A program made the translations under genes and the position numbers. Under the pieces are notes generated by a model. The model was not told the DNA's origin. It did no database searches and saw nothing but the letters and a program-made list of their open reading frames with translations. From the IMG/VR virus record IMGVR_UViG_3300024331_000007, positions 1 through 64,000 of that record: 64,000 nt of DNA; one strand, 5' to 3'. This document shows positions 10,522-38,509 of the stretch, in pieces. Each line of letters starts with the position of its first letter. Positions within the stretch are counted from its first letter, which is position 1. The DNA is from a virus. Its lineage: Duplodnaviria; Caudoviricetes.

Positions 10522-10612
10522 TGGCGGAAGGCTGAGGTGTCGATCCCCATGCTGTTTTGCAAGCACCACTAGTTTTCAAGACTAGGTTTAAGGCCGCTTA
10601 AATTAACCTTCC
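10522..10612 (-). tRNA. tRNA-Ser (TGA)
   Basis: Long variable arm, CT-TGA-AA, G73, CCA. Confidence 0.9.
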
Positions 10613-10690: not shown

Positions 10691-10779
10691 TGGCGGATAG
10701 CTGAGATGTCGATTCCCATGCCGTTCAAGGCACCATCTGTTTTCGAAACAGAGTCAACAGCCGTGTTGATTAACTATCC
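10691..10779 (-). tRNA. tRNA-Ser (CGA)
   Basis: TT-CGA-AA, variable arm, GCCA. Confidence 0.9.
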
Positions 10780-10783
10780 AATC

Positions 10784-11199: not shown

Positions 11200-11222
11200 T
11201 GGCGGAAAATAAATGAGTCGAA
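11200..11222 (-). pseudogene. tRNA 3' remnant (T-loop to CCA)
   Basis: Minus strand TTCGACT-CATTT-ATTTTCC-G-CCA with no 5' part. Confidence 0.6.
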
Positions 11223-11248: not shown

Positions 11249-11878
11249 ATGCCGAATTTTACTACTCAACGATGCGCAGTATGCTTTTGCGAATTTAAAA
11301 GAACTACAAAAGATTCCGCATCTGCGCGTCTAAAAAATTGTGGGGAATCATATTGTTCCCGAAAATGTTTTGGTCTATCAATTCAAACCAAAGTTACTAT
11401 TTCTTGTACTAATTGCCAAAAACAAATTTACAAGATTGAGTCCCAACTGCGAAAAAGTGGCAACAATTTTTGTTCTCGCTCATGCGCCGCCACATACAAT
11501 AATACTCACAAAACTTACGGAACACGTCGATCAAAACTTGAAGTCTTTCTGGAATCTCAAATTCGAGAAGCCTATCCAAACTTGAAACTTCTGTGTAACG
11601 ACAAAACCGCTATTAATTCAGAACTCGATTTCTACTTTCCAGATTTGAATCTTGCTATCGAGTTAAATGGAATCCTTCATTTCGAACCCATCTACGGCCA
11701 TAACAAGTTGGATCAAATTCAATCAAATGACAACAAAAAAGCGTTTCTGTGCAACCAGAATCAAATAAATCTTGCAGTTCTTGATACATCTATGCATAAA
11801 AATTGTAGTCAGGCCGTTAGAACTAAGTTTTGGTCTATTGTTCGTTCTTTGCTTGACTCAAATATGGCGGAAGGCTGA
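11249..11878 (+). CDS. Cys-rich Vsr/DUF559-like PD-(D/E)XK endonuclease, copy 1
   Basis: CxxC/FCSRSC repeats, then SELDFYFP..LAIELNGILHF; stop lies inside tRNA-Ser(GCT). Confidence 0.75.
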   Translation: MPNFTTQRCAVCFCEFKRTTKDSASARLKNCGESYCSRKCFGLSIQTKVTISCTNCQKQIYKIESQLRKSGNNFCSRSCAATYNNTHKTYGTRRSKLEVFLESQIREAYPNLKLLCNDKTAINSELDFYFPDLNLAIELNGILHFEPIYGHNKLDQIQSNDNKKAFLCNQNQINLAVLDTSMHKNCSQAVRTKFWSIVRSLLDSNMAEG

Positions 11879-11956
11879 GAGCACGATTCCCAATGCCGCT
11901 AAGCGGCATCAATCTGTTTAGCAAACAGTTCCAGACACCCTTCTGGTTAACCTTCC
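11865..11956 (-). tRNA. tRNA-Ser (GCT)
   Basis: TT-GCT-AA, variable arm, GCCA. Confidence 0.9.
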
Positions 11957-14184: not shown

Positions 14185-14262
14185 TGGTCGAAACGGCAGG
14201 AATCGAACCTACTTTTTCCAGCCCTCGTGTTGGCTGGTGCCACGCCATTCGGCCACGTAACG
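14185..14262 (-). tRNA. atypical/pseudo tRNA (Pro-like acceptor, 8-nt anticodon loop)
   Basis: C1:G72, A73, CCA; CCAGCC-AACACGAG-GGCTGG. Confidence 0.55.
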
Positions 14263-14479: not shown

Positions 14480-14554
14480 TGGTCGGGGAGGGGAATGTCG
14501 AAATCCCGGCCCTTCCGCCCCAAACGGAATGCTCTGCCTCTGAGCTACTCCCCG
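14480..14554 (-). tRNA. tRNA-Pro (TGG)
   Basis: CGGGGAG/CTCCCCG, TT-TGG-GG. Confidence 0.9.
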
Positions 14555-15147
14555 TTATTCATTTGTTTTTGAATCACCGAGTTGACTATTGACCAATATT
14601 TATTTTTTGCAGATTGGTTCAAATATTTACAAGTCGATGAATCAATTATAGCAAGATTTATTTGTTTTTGACAGCAAAGAAAATATTTTTTACTATCGTT
14701 GCTTTGAATCTGTTCTAGTTTTTTGGTTCCGTATATTGGTTCAAAATGCAAAATGCCATTTAGCTCGATTGCTAATTTTAGCTCTGGAAAATAGAAATCA
14801 AGCTCTGAATTTATCGTTTCCTTGTCATTACACAGAAGTCGTAAATTTGGATAATGACTTCGAACTTCTCCCTCAAGAAAGATTTCAAGTTTTGAACGTC
14901 TTGATCCATGTTTCTTGCTTCTATTGTTATATGTTGCCGCGCACGAAGACGAACAAAATTTATATGTTCGTTTGTAAAAATTTAGAGCTTCTGAACATTG
15001 ACTACACTTTTTTGGTGATAATGCATACGTTTCGCGTATTTTCTTGGCATTTTTAGCAGATACTTTGCTACCTATTTTTCCAGCATTACAAATACTTATT
15101 TGCTGTCTGCCACTCTTGTAATATTCTGTTTCCTTCATGTTGATCAT
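14545..15147 (-). CDS. Cys-rich Vsr/DUF559-like endonuclease, copy 2
   Basis: Same SELDFYFPELKLAIELNGILHF core; stop inside tRNA-Pro 5' end. Confidence 0.75.
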   Translation of the reverse strand: MINMKETEYYKSGRQQISICNAGKIGSKVSAKNAKKIRETYALSPKKCSQCSEALNFYKRTYKFCSSSCAATYNNRSKKHGSRRSKLEIFLEGEVRSHYPNLRLLCNDKETINSELDFYFPELKLAIELNGILHFEPIYGTKKLEQIQSNDSKKYFLCCQKQINLAIIDSSTCKYLNQSAKNKYWSIVNSVIQKQMNNGE

Positions 15148-27104: not shown

Positions 27105-27949
27105 GTGTTCCTTTCTTAACCAACACGAACCACAGCATTGCGATTTATATTTGGACCCCATTCAGGTGTGTAGTAACCATCAAAATGCTTTTTCGTGATT
27201 TTTGTTACGTGTGATACGGCCTCTGGATAATCAGTTCCTCCAGTAATCACAGTCGCATCCTGCGGCATCTTTTGCAATTCCAAAATCAATTCGCCAACTG
27301 TCATATTTCACCGCTTTCACTTTCCAAAATGTTCAGAACTTTTTCTTCGACGGCAAGGATTGGACACCATTTCGGAATGGGATTGATTTCACTGTCCCAT
27401 TCAACGTAACCAGAAGTTCCACGGAAGCCGTGTTCCGCTTTTTTGTCAGGTTTCAGTTTACAAAAATAGTCTGTAGCATATCCAGAACCCGGCGTGTGTG
27501 CTGAACCAGCGTAAGGACAGCAAATATTGTCATCTCCGTTGTTAACGCATCGATCAATGTTTATAACAATTTTTGCCACAGTAAGCCTTTCAAGATTCTA
27601 ATTTTTTCAGAAGCTTTTCTTGAATATCCAACCAAGCATATTTCCATGATTCTTCAATTGATACTGTCGATGATCCCAATAAGGTTCTCGGTCTACCAAA
27701 CCAATTTGTTTTCGGAGTTTCGGTGTGGATTTCCCACTGAATGCCAAATATATCTGGGCGACATTTGGCATCAGGATAGATCATCTTGACATTTTCTTCA
27801 TCTGTCATAATTGATTATATCACACAAAACACCAAAGGCCAGCTAAATTTTAGCTGACCAGCATGGAACAGTTTCGAACCAATTACAGTGTAAACATCAA
27901 TAAAGTTTGTATTTAATACACTGAGATTACATGTATTATATTGACACCC

Positions 27950-28856
27950 GATGGATTATGCCGTCTCTTGCGAAGACCGTCCGTGAGGACTTCGGTTTCC
28001 CATCACATCCACTAAGCCCTTTATTCAAGGTATCCTAGTCTGTCAACATCGTCGCCTTTTTTGAAGTCAGGCAGTGGACTTGTCTGATAAGGTTATTCTA
28101 CGCTCTCCATCCCGTCTGTTTTGCGAACAGTTCGAAGCCGCTAAGCCCCTACGAAATTTCCTGCACAAACTATCGCAACCTTGCGAGTCTTGATAGACTT
28201 GATTCTCTTGCGAGTCAAGCATTAGACGATTTTCGCCTTATCACGGAGCAGACTTTGCTTTTTGTAAGAAACAGTCAGAATCGAACTGACTACCCTCTGT
28301 TTAATAGACAGATGCTCTACCAATTGAGCTTTGTTTGCAACCCACATCATGTGCTGCTCCAGTTGCCAAGCCAGATTTTGTCCAGCCTGATACAACACAT
28401 GACATACCTTTCTTCTGCGGAATACTCAGTGGTACTTCACGAAAAATGTGCTTGCGCCCATTCTCCGTTCATACTGCATTTCAGCCCTAGCTTGCGAAGG
28501 CTCAGACCAAAACACTACCCTTTCCATTACGGAATAACAAGTTGATACGATAGGAAGACAGCATCACCTGTTTCTTTTCAATTGCCAAAGTTCCCTATCC
28601 CGAAGGCGTCGGCTTATAAACAATTGTTCTTTCCCTATCACTTGCGTCCTCTTTACAACCACCGCTTTTTTCAGTGATCGCCGTCTCGCGACGGATGGGA
28701 GGCTTGCATAGACGGACTAATTGCTTAGCGCAAGTGCGTAGGCTTCCTTGCTTTGGGCACCTCACGGTGCTTATCCTAATGGGGCTATGCCCCCAATCTT
28801 GTTTTCAAACATCTTTGCGAATCACCATATGATTCGGTTGCGTCAACTCAGCAACA
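27950..28856 (-). ncRNA. large structured RNA, GOLLD-like, with embedded tRNA-like domain
   Basis: ~900 nt with no credible ORF, many GCAA/GAAA/GTGA/GCGA-capped hairpins, own promoter, tRNA-cluster context. Confidence 0.65.
28266..28338 (-). tRNA. tRNA-Asn-like (ATT) inside the large RNA, no CCA
   Basis: AGCTCAATTGGTAGAGC D arm, TCTGT-CT ATT AA-ACAGA, GTTCGATTC. Confidence 0.65.
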
Positions 28857-35402: not shown

Positions 35403-35863
35403 GTATTAACCTTCAAACTTTTCCAGAATTTCCTCACCCATTCCAACTTTGATAAGTTCTTCTGCTCTTGCAATTCCTTTGACTTTTGCCTCTTCCTTGG
35501 TTACGTAACCTTCGGAAAGTATCGTCATTTGAAACCATGCTTTCGGTTTGGCTGTTTTGTAATGACCTCTCAATGCCCATCCCTTTTTGGTATCTGGCGC
35601 ATCGAATGTATAGATCAGGTTAGACCAAAACTCGTCAAACGATTCCATGTGTTTCCTTTCTACTTGGTAAGATTATCAAAGAATATCTTCATTTTCTCAA
35701 AATGTTCTTTGCAAAGATTAAATCCTTGCAATTTGTGGTCGCCTGTCTTATTGCATTCTGGTAAATCACAAATCGCGTTCTTCTTTGACATAATACCTCT
35801 AAACTTATGGGATAAGGACAATGCGAGTGTCGTTATCCCTGCATCTGTTGAATCATCGCATAA

Positions 35864-35934
35864 CAGGTAAGCAGGAATTGAACCTACTTTTCTGGCTCCA
35901 ATCGCCAGTGTCCTAGCCGATAGACGATTACCCT
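35864..35934 (-). pseudogene. degenerate tRNA-Gln-like (TTG), no CCA
   Basis: CTGGC-GA TTG GA-GCCAG; A33. Confidence 0.5.
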
Positions 35935-35956
35935 AATTCAACAAACCTAAAACTTT

Positions 35957-35975
35957 TGGCGGTCCCGACGAGATT
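35957..35975 (-). pseudogene. tRNA 3' remnant (from T-loop to CCA), Asp-like
   Basis: AAT-CTCGT-CGGGACC-G-CCA. Confidence 0.65.
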
Positions 35976-36001
35976 TATTTGGTATTTTGATAAATATTGA
36001 T

Positions 36002-36646
36002 ATGCCCAATACCGCCAATCTCGTTTGTGATTATTGCAATTCAACTTTTGTTAGAACATCTAAAGATATCGCATCATCCCGAATCGCTAATTCTAAATCA
36101 AAATTCTGTTCTCGAACATGTATGGGATTATCCAATATAACAACGAAAACGGTTACGTGTTTACAATGTAACAAACTCTTTCAAAAACAAGCACATCGAA
36201 TTAAAAAATCACCTAATCATTTTTGTGATCGTTCATGCTCAGCCAAATATCACAATGTTCATAAAACTATTGGAACTCGGCGTTCAAAACTTGAAATTTT
36301 TCTGGAATCTAAACTTCGTAAGTCATATCCAGAATTGAAACTCCTGTGCAATGATAAATCTGCCATTAATTCAGAACTCGATTTCTACTTCCCAGAGTTA
36401 CAACTTGCAATAGAATTAAACGGAATACTCCATTTTGAACCCATTTATGGTAATAGCAAACTGACTCAAATTCAATCGAATGATACTAAGAAATCCTTTT
36501 TATGTCATCAGCAGCATATCAATCTTGCTGTTATCGACTGCTCTACATATTCTCATCTAACTGAAAAAGTTAAAAACAAATATTGGAACATTGTTAATAA
36601 CCTTTTAGCAAATATGGCGGGGAATATGGGTAACGATCCCACCTGA
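36002..36646 (+). CDS. Cys-rich Vsr/DUF559-like endonuclease, copy 3
   Basis: Same core as 11249 and 14545 ORFs; C-terminus overlaps tRNA-Asp 3' end antisense. Confidence 0.75.
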   Translation: MPNTANLVCDYCNSTFVRTSKDIASSRIANSKSKFCSRTCMGLSNITTKTVTCLQCNKLFQKQAHRIKKSPNHFCDRSCSAKYHNVHKTIGTRRSKLEIFLESKLRKSYPELKLLCNDKSAINSELDFYFPELQLAIELNGILHFEPIYGNSKLTQIQSNDTKKSFLCHQQHINLAVIDCSTYSHLTEKVKNKYWNIVNNLLANMAGNMGNDPT

Positions 36647-36694
36647 TATTCCTGATCGACAGTCAGGCAACCACTCCATGCAGTTCCATTCCCC
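36615..36694 (-). tRNA. tRNA-Asp (GTC), divergent
   Basis: CT-GTC-GA, G73, ATCGTTA T-loop. Confidence 0.8.
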
Positions 36695-36708: not shown

Positions 36709-36783
36709 TGGCTCACCCCCTCAGAGTCGAACTGAGAACCAATGCCTTAACAGGGCACCGCTCTGCCATTGAGCTAGAGGTGA
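36709..36783 (-). tRNA. tRNA-Asn (GTT)
   Basis: CT-GTT-AA, G73. Confidence 0.9.
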
Positions 36784-37713: not shown

Positions 37714-37789
37714 TGGTGCATTCGGAGGGATTTGAACCCCCATCAATTCGATTAAAAGTCGAGTATAATGTCCGTTATACGACGAATGC
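37714..37789 (-). tRNA. tRNA-Lys (TTT)
   Basis: CT-TTT-AA. Confidence 0.9.
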
Positions 37790-38185
37790 ATTTTTTAAAT
37801 ACTTACTTGCCGCAACAAATAGTTTAGGATCATCATTAAATAATCCAAGAACTCTATTACAGGTATTACAGATTGCTCCTCTAAACTTTAATGTTTTGTG
37901 GTCGTGATCTAAAACCAATTTCTTTACTTTTCGATTACAAATCTTACAGACGCCATTGGCATCCTTTTTAATCTTTTCTATCGTTTCGTTTTTTGTACCT
38001 AATTTCTCTCGCCAACGATAGATTTCACGTTTTTCCTTTGTGCCGCTATAAAAACTTTGGGAAACTCGACAACACCAAACTTTCTTGTTCGATTTTAGAA
38101 CAATTGGTATGTATCCACAATGTTCGCATATCGCCATTTTATTTTGAACATCGATGTTTGTTAGTTTATGTACCCGTTTACCCAT
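37775..38185 (-). CDS. endonuclease VII-type HNH homing endonuclease
   Basis: CKIC...LVLDHDHKT...RGAICNTCNRVLG; stop inside tRNA-Lys 5' end. Confidence 0.85.
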   Translation of the reverse strand: MGKRVHKLTNIDVQNKMAICEHCGYIPIVLKSNKKVWCCRVSQSFYSGTKEKREIYRWREKLGTKNETIEKIKKDANGVCKICNRKVKKLVLDHDHKTLKFRGAICNTCNRVLGLFNDDPKLFVAASKYLKNAFVV

Positions 38186-38509
38186 TTTCTTCCTAAAATG
38201 TAAAATCCTCGCCGTAGCGAGGATTTGGAAAATACACAAATCCTCGCTTACAGCTTATCTTCCTGATTATTCCACACGGATGCGGAATCAATCTTGTTGA
38301 TCTGTTGTTTATTAATCGAGATGTTGCTAATGTTCTTCATGACTGTATTTATCTTCTCACAATGCTTTCTTTTTGTCAAGCACAAAATTTATTTAATTTT
38401 TGCTGGACTGAACGCTGTCTGCATGATTATTTATACAGCTAAGCAGTCTCTTTGTCAAGCGTAAATGTATTTATCCTTGAAAAAAGTTTTTGGATCAGTT
38501 TTGGCAAAA

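Follow-up and report, generated by a model that had tools for sequence, protein, structure and literature searches.

How does an endonuclease gene come to lie antisense between a complete tRNA gene and the orphaned 3' end of a second one, inside a phage tRNA array? The question is raised by IMG/VR record IMGVR_UViG_3300024331_000007 (Duplodnaviria; Caudoviricetes), of which positions 1 to 64,000, here called the window, were analyzed; this stretch of 64,000 nucleotides (nt) is part of a 360-kb soil phage genome. ARAGORN finds 44 tRNA genes in the window, nearly all of them on the minus strand, and at positions 35957-36694 an open reading frame (ORF) for an endonuclease, referred to as W2, runs antisense to the array between a tRNA-Asp, the resident, and an isolated tRNA 3' end, the remnant. 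An original prediction, made from the sequence alone, regarded the arrangement as a cassette of a tRNA-targeting mobile family that swaps in resistant tRNAs. Comparison with metagenomic relatives showed that W2 belongs to a large endonuclease family living in the tRNA arrays of large uncultured phages, in one fixed antisense position, and the same comparison strongly supports reading the family as mobile and directed at tRNA genes.

A metagenome scan confirmed 227 relatives of W2, the best 80 of which were fetched for analysis of their loci (L numbers below denote fetched viral stretches). IMG/VR contributed 20 loci; its six near full-length relatives are all situated in tRNA arrays, and distant matches limited to the nuclease part are not. 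The position of the gene was evaluated in 72 distinct loci with enough downstream sequence. In 49 of them the 3' end of an antisense tRNA lies between -45 and +70 nt of the stop codon, whereas 12 would be expected if the genes were placed randomly in the same tRNA-dense loci. Most of these 3' ends fall at +3 to +20, and 11 overlap the gene. The endonuclease is antisense to the array in 65 of 69 loci. Homologs are thus clearly enriched beside tRNA genes, and the tRNA-linked mobile family with a single geometry that had been proposed is borne out by these counts and by the repeats described next.

Direct repeats were sought by alignment between the 3'-terminal 32 nt of the abutting tRNA and a 130-nt stretch ahead of the endonuclease start codon, with 200 shuffles for comparison. 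Nine loci beat all 200 shuffles, and about 14 loci have a repeat in all, perfect ones being found in L044, L097, L098 and L114. Every repeat begins at T54, the first base of the T-loop (resident ...GG/TTCGAAT...), and ends at about N73; the repeats are 16-24 nt long, lie 15-75 nt beyond the start codon, and the older ones are visibly decayed. Where the insertion is younger, resident and remnant have the same T-loop, and it is canonical. T-loop-like starts (TTCRA) occur beyond the start codon in 31 of 69 loci compared to 16 in shuffles, a weak count of which only the excess over shuffles is usable, the motif being near-palindromic and the comparison of strands therefore uninformative. A second T-loop-like box, TTTCGAAAAAT, was seen 15-30 nt before the start codon in L114, L100, L080, L049, L004 and L003, about 14 nt nearer to the ATG than the T-loop of the remnant itself; it could be the cassette's own end, part of a promoter, or a microhomology for joining to the cut T-loop.

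At the W2 locus the resident tRNA and the remnant are separated by about 0.7 kb containing one ORF, that of the nuclease, and no recombinase. A 100-kb Logan contig, probably from the source sample, covers the locus with zero differences. The ORF is listed as 35987-36646 (+) from a TTG start, but the ATG at 36002 is the likelier start, because it yields a protein beginning with MPN, like the paralog at 11249, and stands behind a recurrent TAAATA box. This box begins at exactly -11 in 10 of 75 family loci, including the W1 copy (see below) and the L001 group, and is probably the late-type promoter element of the gene itself. The last 32 nt of the ORF (36615-36646) are the reverse complement of the tRNA-Asp 3' end, which confirms that the C-terminus of the antisense endonuclease is written by the end of the tRNA gene. 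The tail over the tRNA follows the last conserved helix, and its length and sequence vary among relatives. The overlap is real, but it represents the ORF reading on to its first stop rather than constrained dual coding.

The remnant reads, on the minus strand from 35975 to 35957, AAT-CTCGT-CGGGACC-G-CCA, and is located 26 nt before the W2 ATG. Its 19 nt comprise the tail of a T-loop, the 3' strand of a T-stem, the 3' strand of an acceptor stem, G73 and CCA. As had been noticed originally, the acceptor strand is unable to pair with GGGGAAT of the resident tRNA-Asp; resident and remnant have only 6 nt (TGGCGG) in common and represent two different classes of tRNA-Asp. A 16-mer taken from the remnant, CTCGTCGGGACCGCCA, has 17 exact matches in IMG/VR. 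In L022 it coincides exactly with the 3' end (with CCA) of a canonical tRNA-Asp(GTC) that belongs to a phage tRNA array, and in L027 it is likewise followed by the same trailer, but at the edge of the fetched stretch, so that no tRNA could be called. The remaining 15 matches are in GC-rich sequence in which no tRNA was called, a number that is about the chance level for a 16-mer in IMG/VR by rough estimate rather than computation. L042 has a tRNA-Asp with the same terminal 11 nt as the remnant, 206 nt past the start of a related endonuclease gene. The first T-loop bases of the remnant are changed or deleted, and alignment with the remnant of W1 puts a 4-nt gap there; apart from this, position and break point fit the family rule. 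These observations indicate that the remnant is the tail of a canonical tRNA-Asp no longer present in the genome. The view that it is a tRNA end cut at the T-loop was thus correct, and a canonical tRNA-Asp with the same 3' end exists in L022. Nor is the remnant the 3' half of a split or trans-spliced resident tRNA, since the acceptor strands cannot pair and the resident is complete.

The W2 protein consists of two parts. Residues ~1-90 contain two CxxC...CxxxC zinc fingers with a zf-FCS match below the cut-off (E = 1e-3); the profile of W2 matches MYM/FCS fingers in the PDB (MYM finger 2das, E = 0.01), and the twin fingers are FCS/TRASH-like. Residues ~93-207 form, by fold, a nuclease domain of the Vsr/EDxHD type (PD-(D/E)xK-related; AlphaFold model, predicted local distance difference test score, pLDDT, 79). 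When residues 93-207 of the model were compared with known structures by VIA-align, Z values of 10.3 to I-Bth0305I (3r3p_A; root-mean-square deviation 2.8 A, 96 of 97 residues aligned), 10.3 to Vsr (1cw0_A), 10.2 to 1vsr and 10.1 to the DUF559-like 3hrl were obtained, with Z <= 7 for unrelated folds as control. Foldseek alone was weak (E = 2e-3 to 0.3). Residues E125, D127, E138, N140, H144 and D161 are invariant in an alignment of nine relatives. The composite E...D...x...H...D pattern is present in W2, where N follows D at a distance of 13, H at 17 and the last D at 34; in I-Bth0305I the catalytic residues D196, N208, H213 and D222 are spaced 12, 17 and 26 from D (PMC3239194), a comparison of pattern and spacing and not a residue-by-residue superposition.

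Two PHROGs annotated as 'homing/HNH endonuclease' match W2 (PHROG 559, E = 2e-12; PHROG 9084, E = 2e-8). No nuclease hit was obtained in the PDB by profile and single-sequence HMMER searches at E <= 1 to 10, Pfam and NCBIfam returned nothing for the nuclease part, no GIY-YIG match was found in Pfam or PHROGs, and cultured phages gave only distant partial matches (coverage <= 55%, identity 29-45%). In the PDB, Pfam and NCBIfam no sequence-level connection to Vsr or I-Bth0305I was found, so that the link to them is one of fold and motif only. Because HMMER finds no homology to the solved members and the N-terminal domain is unlike theirs, the model argues for a new architecture within the Vsr/EDxHD fold family rather than a typical member of it. 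Taken together, W2 appears to be a homing-endonuclease gene, intact and free-standing, whose product combines zinc fingers with a nuclease domain of the Vsr/EDxHD type and is predicted to cleave DNA.

The resident is the only tRNA-Asp of the 360-kb genome. Its T-arm is GTGGG-ATCGTTA-CCCAT, its acceptor stem GGGGAAT/ATTCCCC, and with the tRNA model of Rfam it goes undetected up to E <= 10. When its D-region and T-arm were combined into a search pattern, 14 viral contigs with the same kind of tRNA-Asp were detected. In the alignment of 11 distinct sequences (the resident and 10 from viral contigs) all 231 of 231 stem cells are paired and 15 of the 21 pairs show compensatory changes, which was equaled by none of 500 shuffles, and slid controls fall to ~40-50% paired. 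The T-loop AUCGUUA (with A54 and U58), the D-region CUGCAUGGAGUGG and UCAG in the 8-nt variable region are invariant in this A54 class. The covariation refutes the idea that the odd tRNA-Asp is a decaying pseudogene or an artifact of the ORF overlap. An endonuclease homolog is absent from 13 of the 14 contigs within the fetched 1-14 kb, absence being weak evidence for the few short stretches; the 14th contig is that of L001, where the tRNA lies ~420 nt from the endonuclease gene. In L001 and L039 a small gene and a tRNA stand between the two. In L124 and L131 tRNA-Asn is directly followed by the A54 tRNA-Asp, as in the window, and there is no endonuclease. L038, a close relative of L001, has a canonical tRNA-Asp where L001 and L039 carry the A54 type, showing that exchange between the two classes happens without involving the endonuclease position. 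These data show the resident to be a genuine, presumably functional member of an old, conserved class that is independent of the cassette. With a class spread over 14 contigs, 13 of them lacking the endonuclease in the stretches fetched, the original view of the resident as a local divergent replacement could not be upheld.

A54 T-loops (GGAUCGUWRCC) were also noticed in other phage tRNAs, among them Asp, Asn, Lys, Ile and Ser (examples: window 36615-36694, L118-L131, L005 2616-2704, L006 4622-4695, L072, L101). In most of them position 58 is U, so that the usual T54-A58 pair looks swapped, and standard tRNA finders score them poorly. The published cases of A54 are the eukaryotic initiator tRNA and a tRNA-Ala with A54/A58, such pairs being stated to be absent from bacteria and archaea (PMC7566577), and a literature search found no others. 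The window contains three type-II tRNA-Ser-like genes (10522-10612, 10691-10780 and 11865-11956, all minus; anticodons UGA, CGA and GCU) that neither ARAGORN nor Rfam detects. Each ends in G73-CCA and has a long variable arm; the D-stem, of 5-6 bp and closed by a 4-nt loop, is tRNA-Sec/allo-tRNA-like, and the T-loop is AUCGACA or AUCGUGC. Of 28 predicted pairs, 13 show compensatory changes among the three genes. An A54-type tRNA-Asn is located just beyond the endonuclease start in L038 (708-782, minus), where it is intact, and in L001 (2844-2965, minus) and L039, where the same tRNA, of one sequence in both, carries a 45-nt insert in the anticodon, between CUGU and UAA. The insert resembles part of another tRNA (variable region, canonical T-arm, 3' strand of the acceptor); a mini-intron, a scar left by recombination and another form of 'double 3' end' are possible interpretations.

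That the endonuclease has paralogs in the same phage was predicted correctly: tblastn finds exactly three copies, W1, W2 and W3 (Table 1), in the window and in the whole 360-kb genome, with 59-60% mutual identity. W1 abuts the A54-type tRNA-Ser(GCU) (11865-11956, minus). Its 23-nt remnant (11200-11222, minus) begins exactly at the TTCGACT T-loop and, like that of W2, lies 26 nt before the ATG. No parent of the W1 remnant was found, the only IMG/VR match of an 18-mer not being in a tRNA; L064 carries a similar Ser-type remnant. When the W1 and W2 loci are aligned as DNA, their left junctions agree over 12 nt, CAAATATGGCGG, with the tRNA end CCGCCA inside, and another 14 nt, CCGCCAAAAGTTTT, spanning the remnant 3' end and the trailer, are common to both. 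The 9-mer AAAACTTTT within the latter, which follows both remnants, has nine copies in the window versus 3.5 expected, and two of the nine abut the 5' end of a called tRNA (11192, 12138). It may thus be a tRNA leader motif, not usable for defining the boundaries of the cassette.

W3 is on the strand of the tRNAs; it follows tRNA-Pro(CGG) or precedes it in the interval to tRNA-Pro(UGG), into whose 5' end its stop codon falls, and it forms a clade with L002 and L056, which have the same sense arrangement between tRNA-Pro genes. The tRNA-Pro(UGG) (14480-14554) has an odd 6-nt T-loop by manual parsing. In the protein tree W1 and W2 are sisters (support 99/93), therefore the two antisense copies cannot be counted as two independent loci as was done originally. 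The phylogeny with flanking tRNAs, originally suggested as a check, did reveal an association: tRNA identity requires 36 changes on the tree compared to a shuffled mean of 47.9, with none of 200 shuffles as low. It switches often yet is clustered, as seen in the Asn, Pro and Leu clades.

Table 1. Positions of the W2 locus, its neighbors and the endonuclease copies in the window
Feature	Positions	Strand	Source and remarks
Endonuclease ORF, copy W2	36002-36646	+	ORF list, translation; 214 aa from ATG
TAAATA box	35991-35996	+	Begins 11 nt before the ATG of W2
Resident tRNA-Asp(GUC)	36615-36694	-	ARAGORN
Remnant (orphan tRNA-Asp 3' end)	35957-35975	-	Sequence; decayed T-loop may reach 35979
tRNA-Asn(GUU), canonical, upstream neighbor of the resident tRNA-Asp	36709-36783	-	ARAGORN, Rfam 60.7 bits
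tRNA-Gln(UUG), no encoded CCA, next gene after the remnant	35863-35934	-	ARAGORN, Rfam 36.6 bits
W1, sister copy	11249-11878	+	tblastn, 59% identity
W2	35987-36646	+	tblastn
W3, third paralog	14545-15147	-	tblastn

Some other features of the window were recorded. Rfam identified a GOLLD RNA (194.5 bits) at 27918-28405 (minus), within which a tRNA-Asn(AUU) was called at 28266-28338. At 19454-20103 (minus) it identified an RNase P RNA of class A (118 bits), stretched to 650 nt. Two amber-reading (CUA) tRNAs and one ochre-reading (UUA) tRNA are located at 24352-24428, 24878-24953 and 25202-25279 (minus), and a tRNA with a 4-base anticodon (CACG) was called at 14185-14262 (minus). Many of the Trp, Glu, Gly and Ile tRNAs are paired, one member being of normal length and the other having an extra variable arm (80-90 nt in total). 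A 151-nt contig of a 2025 estuary metagenome run, one of only a few pieces of this length in that run, matches 35800-35942, the region of tRNA-Gln and a small ORF, with two differences (~98.6% identity), which implies a close relative of the soil phage in a different habitat; coverage is too thin to show which version of the cassette it has.

The closest working analogue of the family is SegB of phages T4 and T6, a free-standing GIY-YIG homing endonuclease of the tRNA gene cluster (PMC2330249; PMC13096335). The 27-bp site of SegB is within a tRNA gene, holds the T-arm box GGTTCRANTCC and is cut near CCA (PMC2330249), and SegB is widely associated with tRNA genes of many isotypes (PMC13096335). 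Both enzymes are free-standing in phage tRNA arrays and tied to many tRNA isotypes, and the segment contained in the SegB site, from the T-loop to the 3' end, is the one duplicated around W2-family genes. The differences are that the fold of the W2 family is of the Vsr/EDxHD type and not GIY-YIG, that zinc fingers would serve for DNA binding, and that a fixed antisense position with a 54-73 repeat is not described for SegB in the available text of the two papers (PMC2330249; PMC13096335); the string 'duplicat' has no occurrence in the main text of PMC2330249. The W2 family, known here from sequence, would at most work like SegB and is not a member of the same family. For W2 the hints to the site of cleavage are indirect, namely insertion junctions at G53/T54 and N73. 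Full-text literature searches found nothing closer to such a family in tRNA arrays.

Judged from the model, the closest structural relative of W2 is the EDxHD family, which includes I-Bth0305I (PMC3239194), the 'fractured gene' endonucleases (PMC2677866) and phage Hef-type genes. W2 is similar to them in the nuclease fold and in the composite E, D, N/H, H, D pattern, with a D-to-H spacing of 17 in both W2 and I-Bth0305I. In contrast, the members described in the available text have NUMOD/HTH repeats and are found in a group I intron or an intein (PMC3239194; PMC2677866), whereas W2 has two N-terminal zinc fingers, is free-standing between tRNA genes, and has an RNA gene as its presumed target.

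The layout is also reminiscent of more general forms of insertion. When phages or islands are inserted into tRNA genes by an integrase, the att core reaches from the T-loop as far as the 3' end; in 'gene hybrids', a mobile ORF has brought along a copy of the end of the host gene. A working gene on one side, the displaced 3' part on the other side and a repeat starting from the T-loop are found family-wide (9-14 loci). Unlike such elements, the W2 insert is only ~0.7 kb with a single 214-aa nuclease ORF and lacks a tyrosine or serine recombinase, and at the W2 locus the displaced tRNA was not the template of the resident one, the two differing in sequence.

Taking these comparisons into account, homing into a canonical tRNA-Asp that stood next to an older A54 tRNA-Asp appears to be the best explanation of the locus, and we consider it probable, though far from certain. 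The enzyme would recognize the segment from the T-arm to the 3' end of a particular tRNA gene, as T4 SegB does; a break would be made there, and the endonuclease gene would be copied in by repair. The tRNA gene would then be interrupted between G53 and T54, flanked by a working tRNA at one end of the insert and by the old tail at the opposite end. In the case of W2, the sister of the copy at tRNA-Ser would have been copied into a canonical tRNA-Asp just downstream of the pre-existing A54 tRNA-Asp. Repair from a W1-like copy would have joined at the CCGCCA end shared by the A54 neighbor and in the T-loop of the target, and the first 53 nt of the canonical tRNA-Asp would have been lost. The loss could be tolerated because a second tRNA-Asp was present, which differs throughout the presumed recognition segment and is probably not a substrate. 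We infer every one of these steps. That the canonical member of an Asp pair was hit is plausible, since tandem isoacceptor pairs are usual in the array (Trp-Trp, Glu-Glu-Glu, Gly-Gly, Cys-Cys).

Several points weigh against this history. An endonuclease-free allele of the W2 locus, or of the locus of any relative, was not found, the only run with the stretch being the probable source sample, present as contigs that cannot show rare variants, and a 22-nt flank pattern and the neighboring 80-aa ORF retrieved no relatives from IMG/VR. The case for mobility of the family is made by comparative patterns. About 50 tRNA genes with canonical T-loops are kept uncut in the phage, so that specificity must be assumed to reach beyond the T-loop; the same problem of tolerated tRNA genes is raised for T4 in the SegB paper (PMC2330249). 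The postulated tandem Asp(A54)-Asp(canonical) ancestor was not observed, and the Asn-Asp adjacency seen elsewhere counts as a single independent case. In this phage each of the two antisense copies is next to a tRNA of the A54 type (Asp and Ser-GCU) while both remnants are canonical, a pattern that homing beside an older neighbor has to treat as partly coincidence. Finally, simple homing does not explain a new tRNA-specific 54-73 duplication at each change of target: plain homing transfers only what is already there, and if repair were primed by microhomology, with the donor at a different tRNA, a hybrid tRNA would result. Either the element makes a 54-73 target duplication, or hybrid tRNAs are corrected or lost.

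The coupling of A54-type residents with canonical remnants at both antisense copies is what would be expected if, as originally predicted, the endonuclease traveled with a resistant tRNA, the two together replacing the canonical tRNA and leaving its old 3' end behind. In the same direction, the gene is flanked in L038 and L111 by two tRNAs for one amino acid, of which one is canonical and the other of the A54 type, and resident and remnant differ in T-stem or acceptor in L079 and L064. As a rule of the family, however, the swapping in of resistant tRNAs failed, because the residents are mostly canonical and identical to their remnants. Classified by a motif test, T-loops were non-canonical in 5 of 51 resident tRNAs versus 32 of 259 other tRNAs of the same loci, and the A54 type accounted for 6 of 118 adjacent versus 17 of 227 distant T-arms (p = 0.5). 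Odd T-loops are thus not enriched in or beside resident tRNAs, and A54 T-loops were rejected as a mark of tRNAs adjacent to the endonuclease. The A54 tRNA-Asp occurs without the endonuclease, or apart from it (L001, L039), as described above, and its T-loop, ATCGTTA, is the invariant loop of its own class and differs from ATCGTGC of the tRNA-Ser next to W1, so that its 3' part is native and was not carried over from a W1-like donor. We regard it as improbable that the tRNA is cargo; it is possible that the divergent tRNA-Asp is in effect immune to an enzyme that recognizes the canonical gene.

Phage tRNA regions are known to collect several kinds of homing endonucleases, and two other kinds are present in the window itself, one an HNH ORF within the gene for RNase P RNA, the other an ORF of the EndoVII type at 37775-38239. 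It could be argued that tRNA genes are not targeted at all, that selfish genes merely gather where they are harmless, and that the remnant arose by decay of a redundant tRNA, a view to which the mere 6 nt shared by resident and remnant at the W2 locus would lend some support. Such gathering is very unlikely to account for the family, since 49 of 72 genes end at the 3' end of an antisense tRNA where random placement predicts 12, the repeats begin exactly at T54 in locus after locus and match the adjoining tRNA, and the orientation is nearly fixed. A role of the gene for the phage, in which its breaks drive recombination or amplification of the tRNA array, would bear on why the gene persists and not on how it arrived, and is compatible with homing into the canonical tRNA-Asp. 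SegB is reported to amplify tRNA segments to escape Septu (PMC13096335), the array is full of tandem isoacceptor pairs, and all three copies of the gene are intact with every invariant residue present; on the other hand, remnants decay like neutral sequence, and the patchy distribution and frequent switching of targets suit a selfish element. By analogy with SegB this role is conceivable, yet we think it unlikely. Doubtful, though deserving attention, is the combined proposal that the family is a minimal element making its own ~20-nt 54-73 target duplication at each new tRNA, for example by cutting at G53/T54 and again some two helical turns away, at the 3' end, and that A54 T-loops are escape alleles. 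If the duplication were true, the tRNA would stay intact without intron, intein or recombinase. If A54 T-loop tRNAs (AUCGU..., with the 54-58 pair swapped or changed) were escape alleles from endonucleases reading the T-arm, the notion of a resistant tRNA would be true at the level of an arms race, the tRNA not being cargo.

The conserved A54 phage tRNAs, including the sole tRNA-Asp and the three tRNA-Ser of the window, are a warning for annotation, as standard tools miss them or report them as doubtful. The endonuclease family is apparently undescribed; it would belong to a known kind, the homing endonucleases associated with tRNA genes, with a geometry that is unusually exact and widespread. 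It would place a second, unrelated nuclease fold in the niche of SegB, one far more numerous in environmental large phages, and SegB has recently been shown to remodel tRNA arrays to escape bacterial defenses (PMC13096335). The geometry is exact enough to predict, from sequence, which segment is recognized (T-loop to 3' end) and where the break falls (G53/T54), and the family offers a natural set of enzymes each apparently tuned to a different tRNA gene. For the phages themselves, the activity of such endonucleases may help to explain the shuffled tRNA arrays of huge phages, with their isoacceptor pairs and tRNA fragments.

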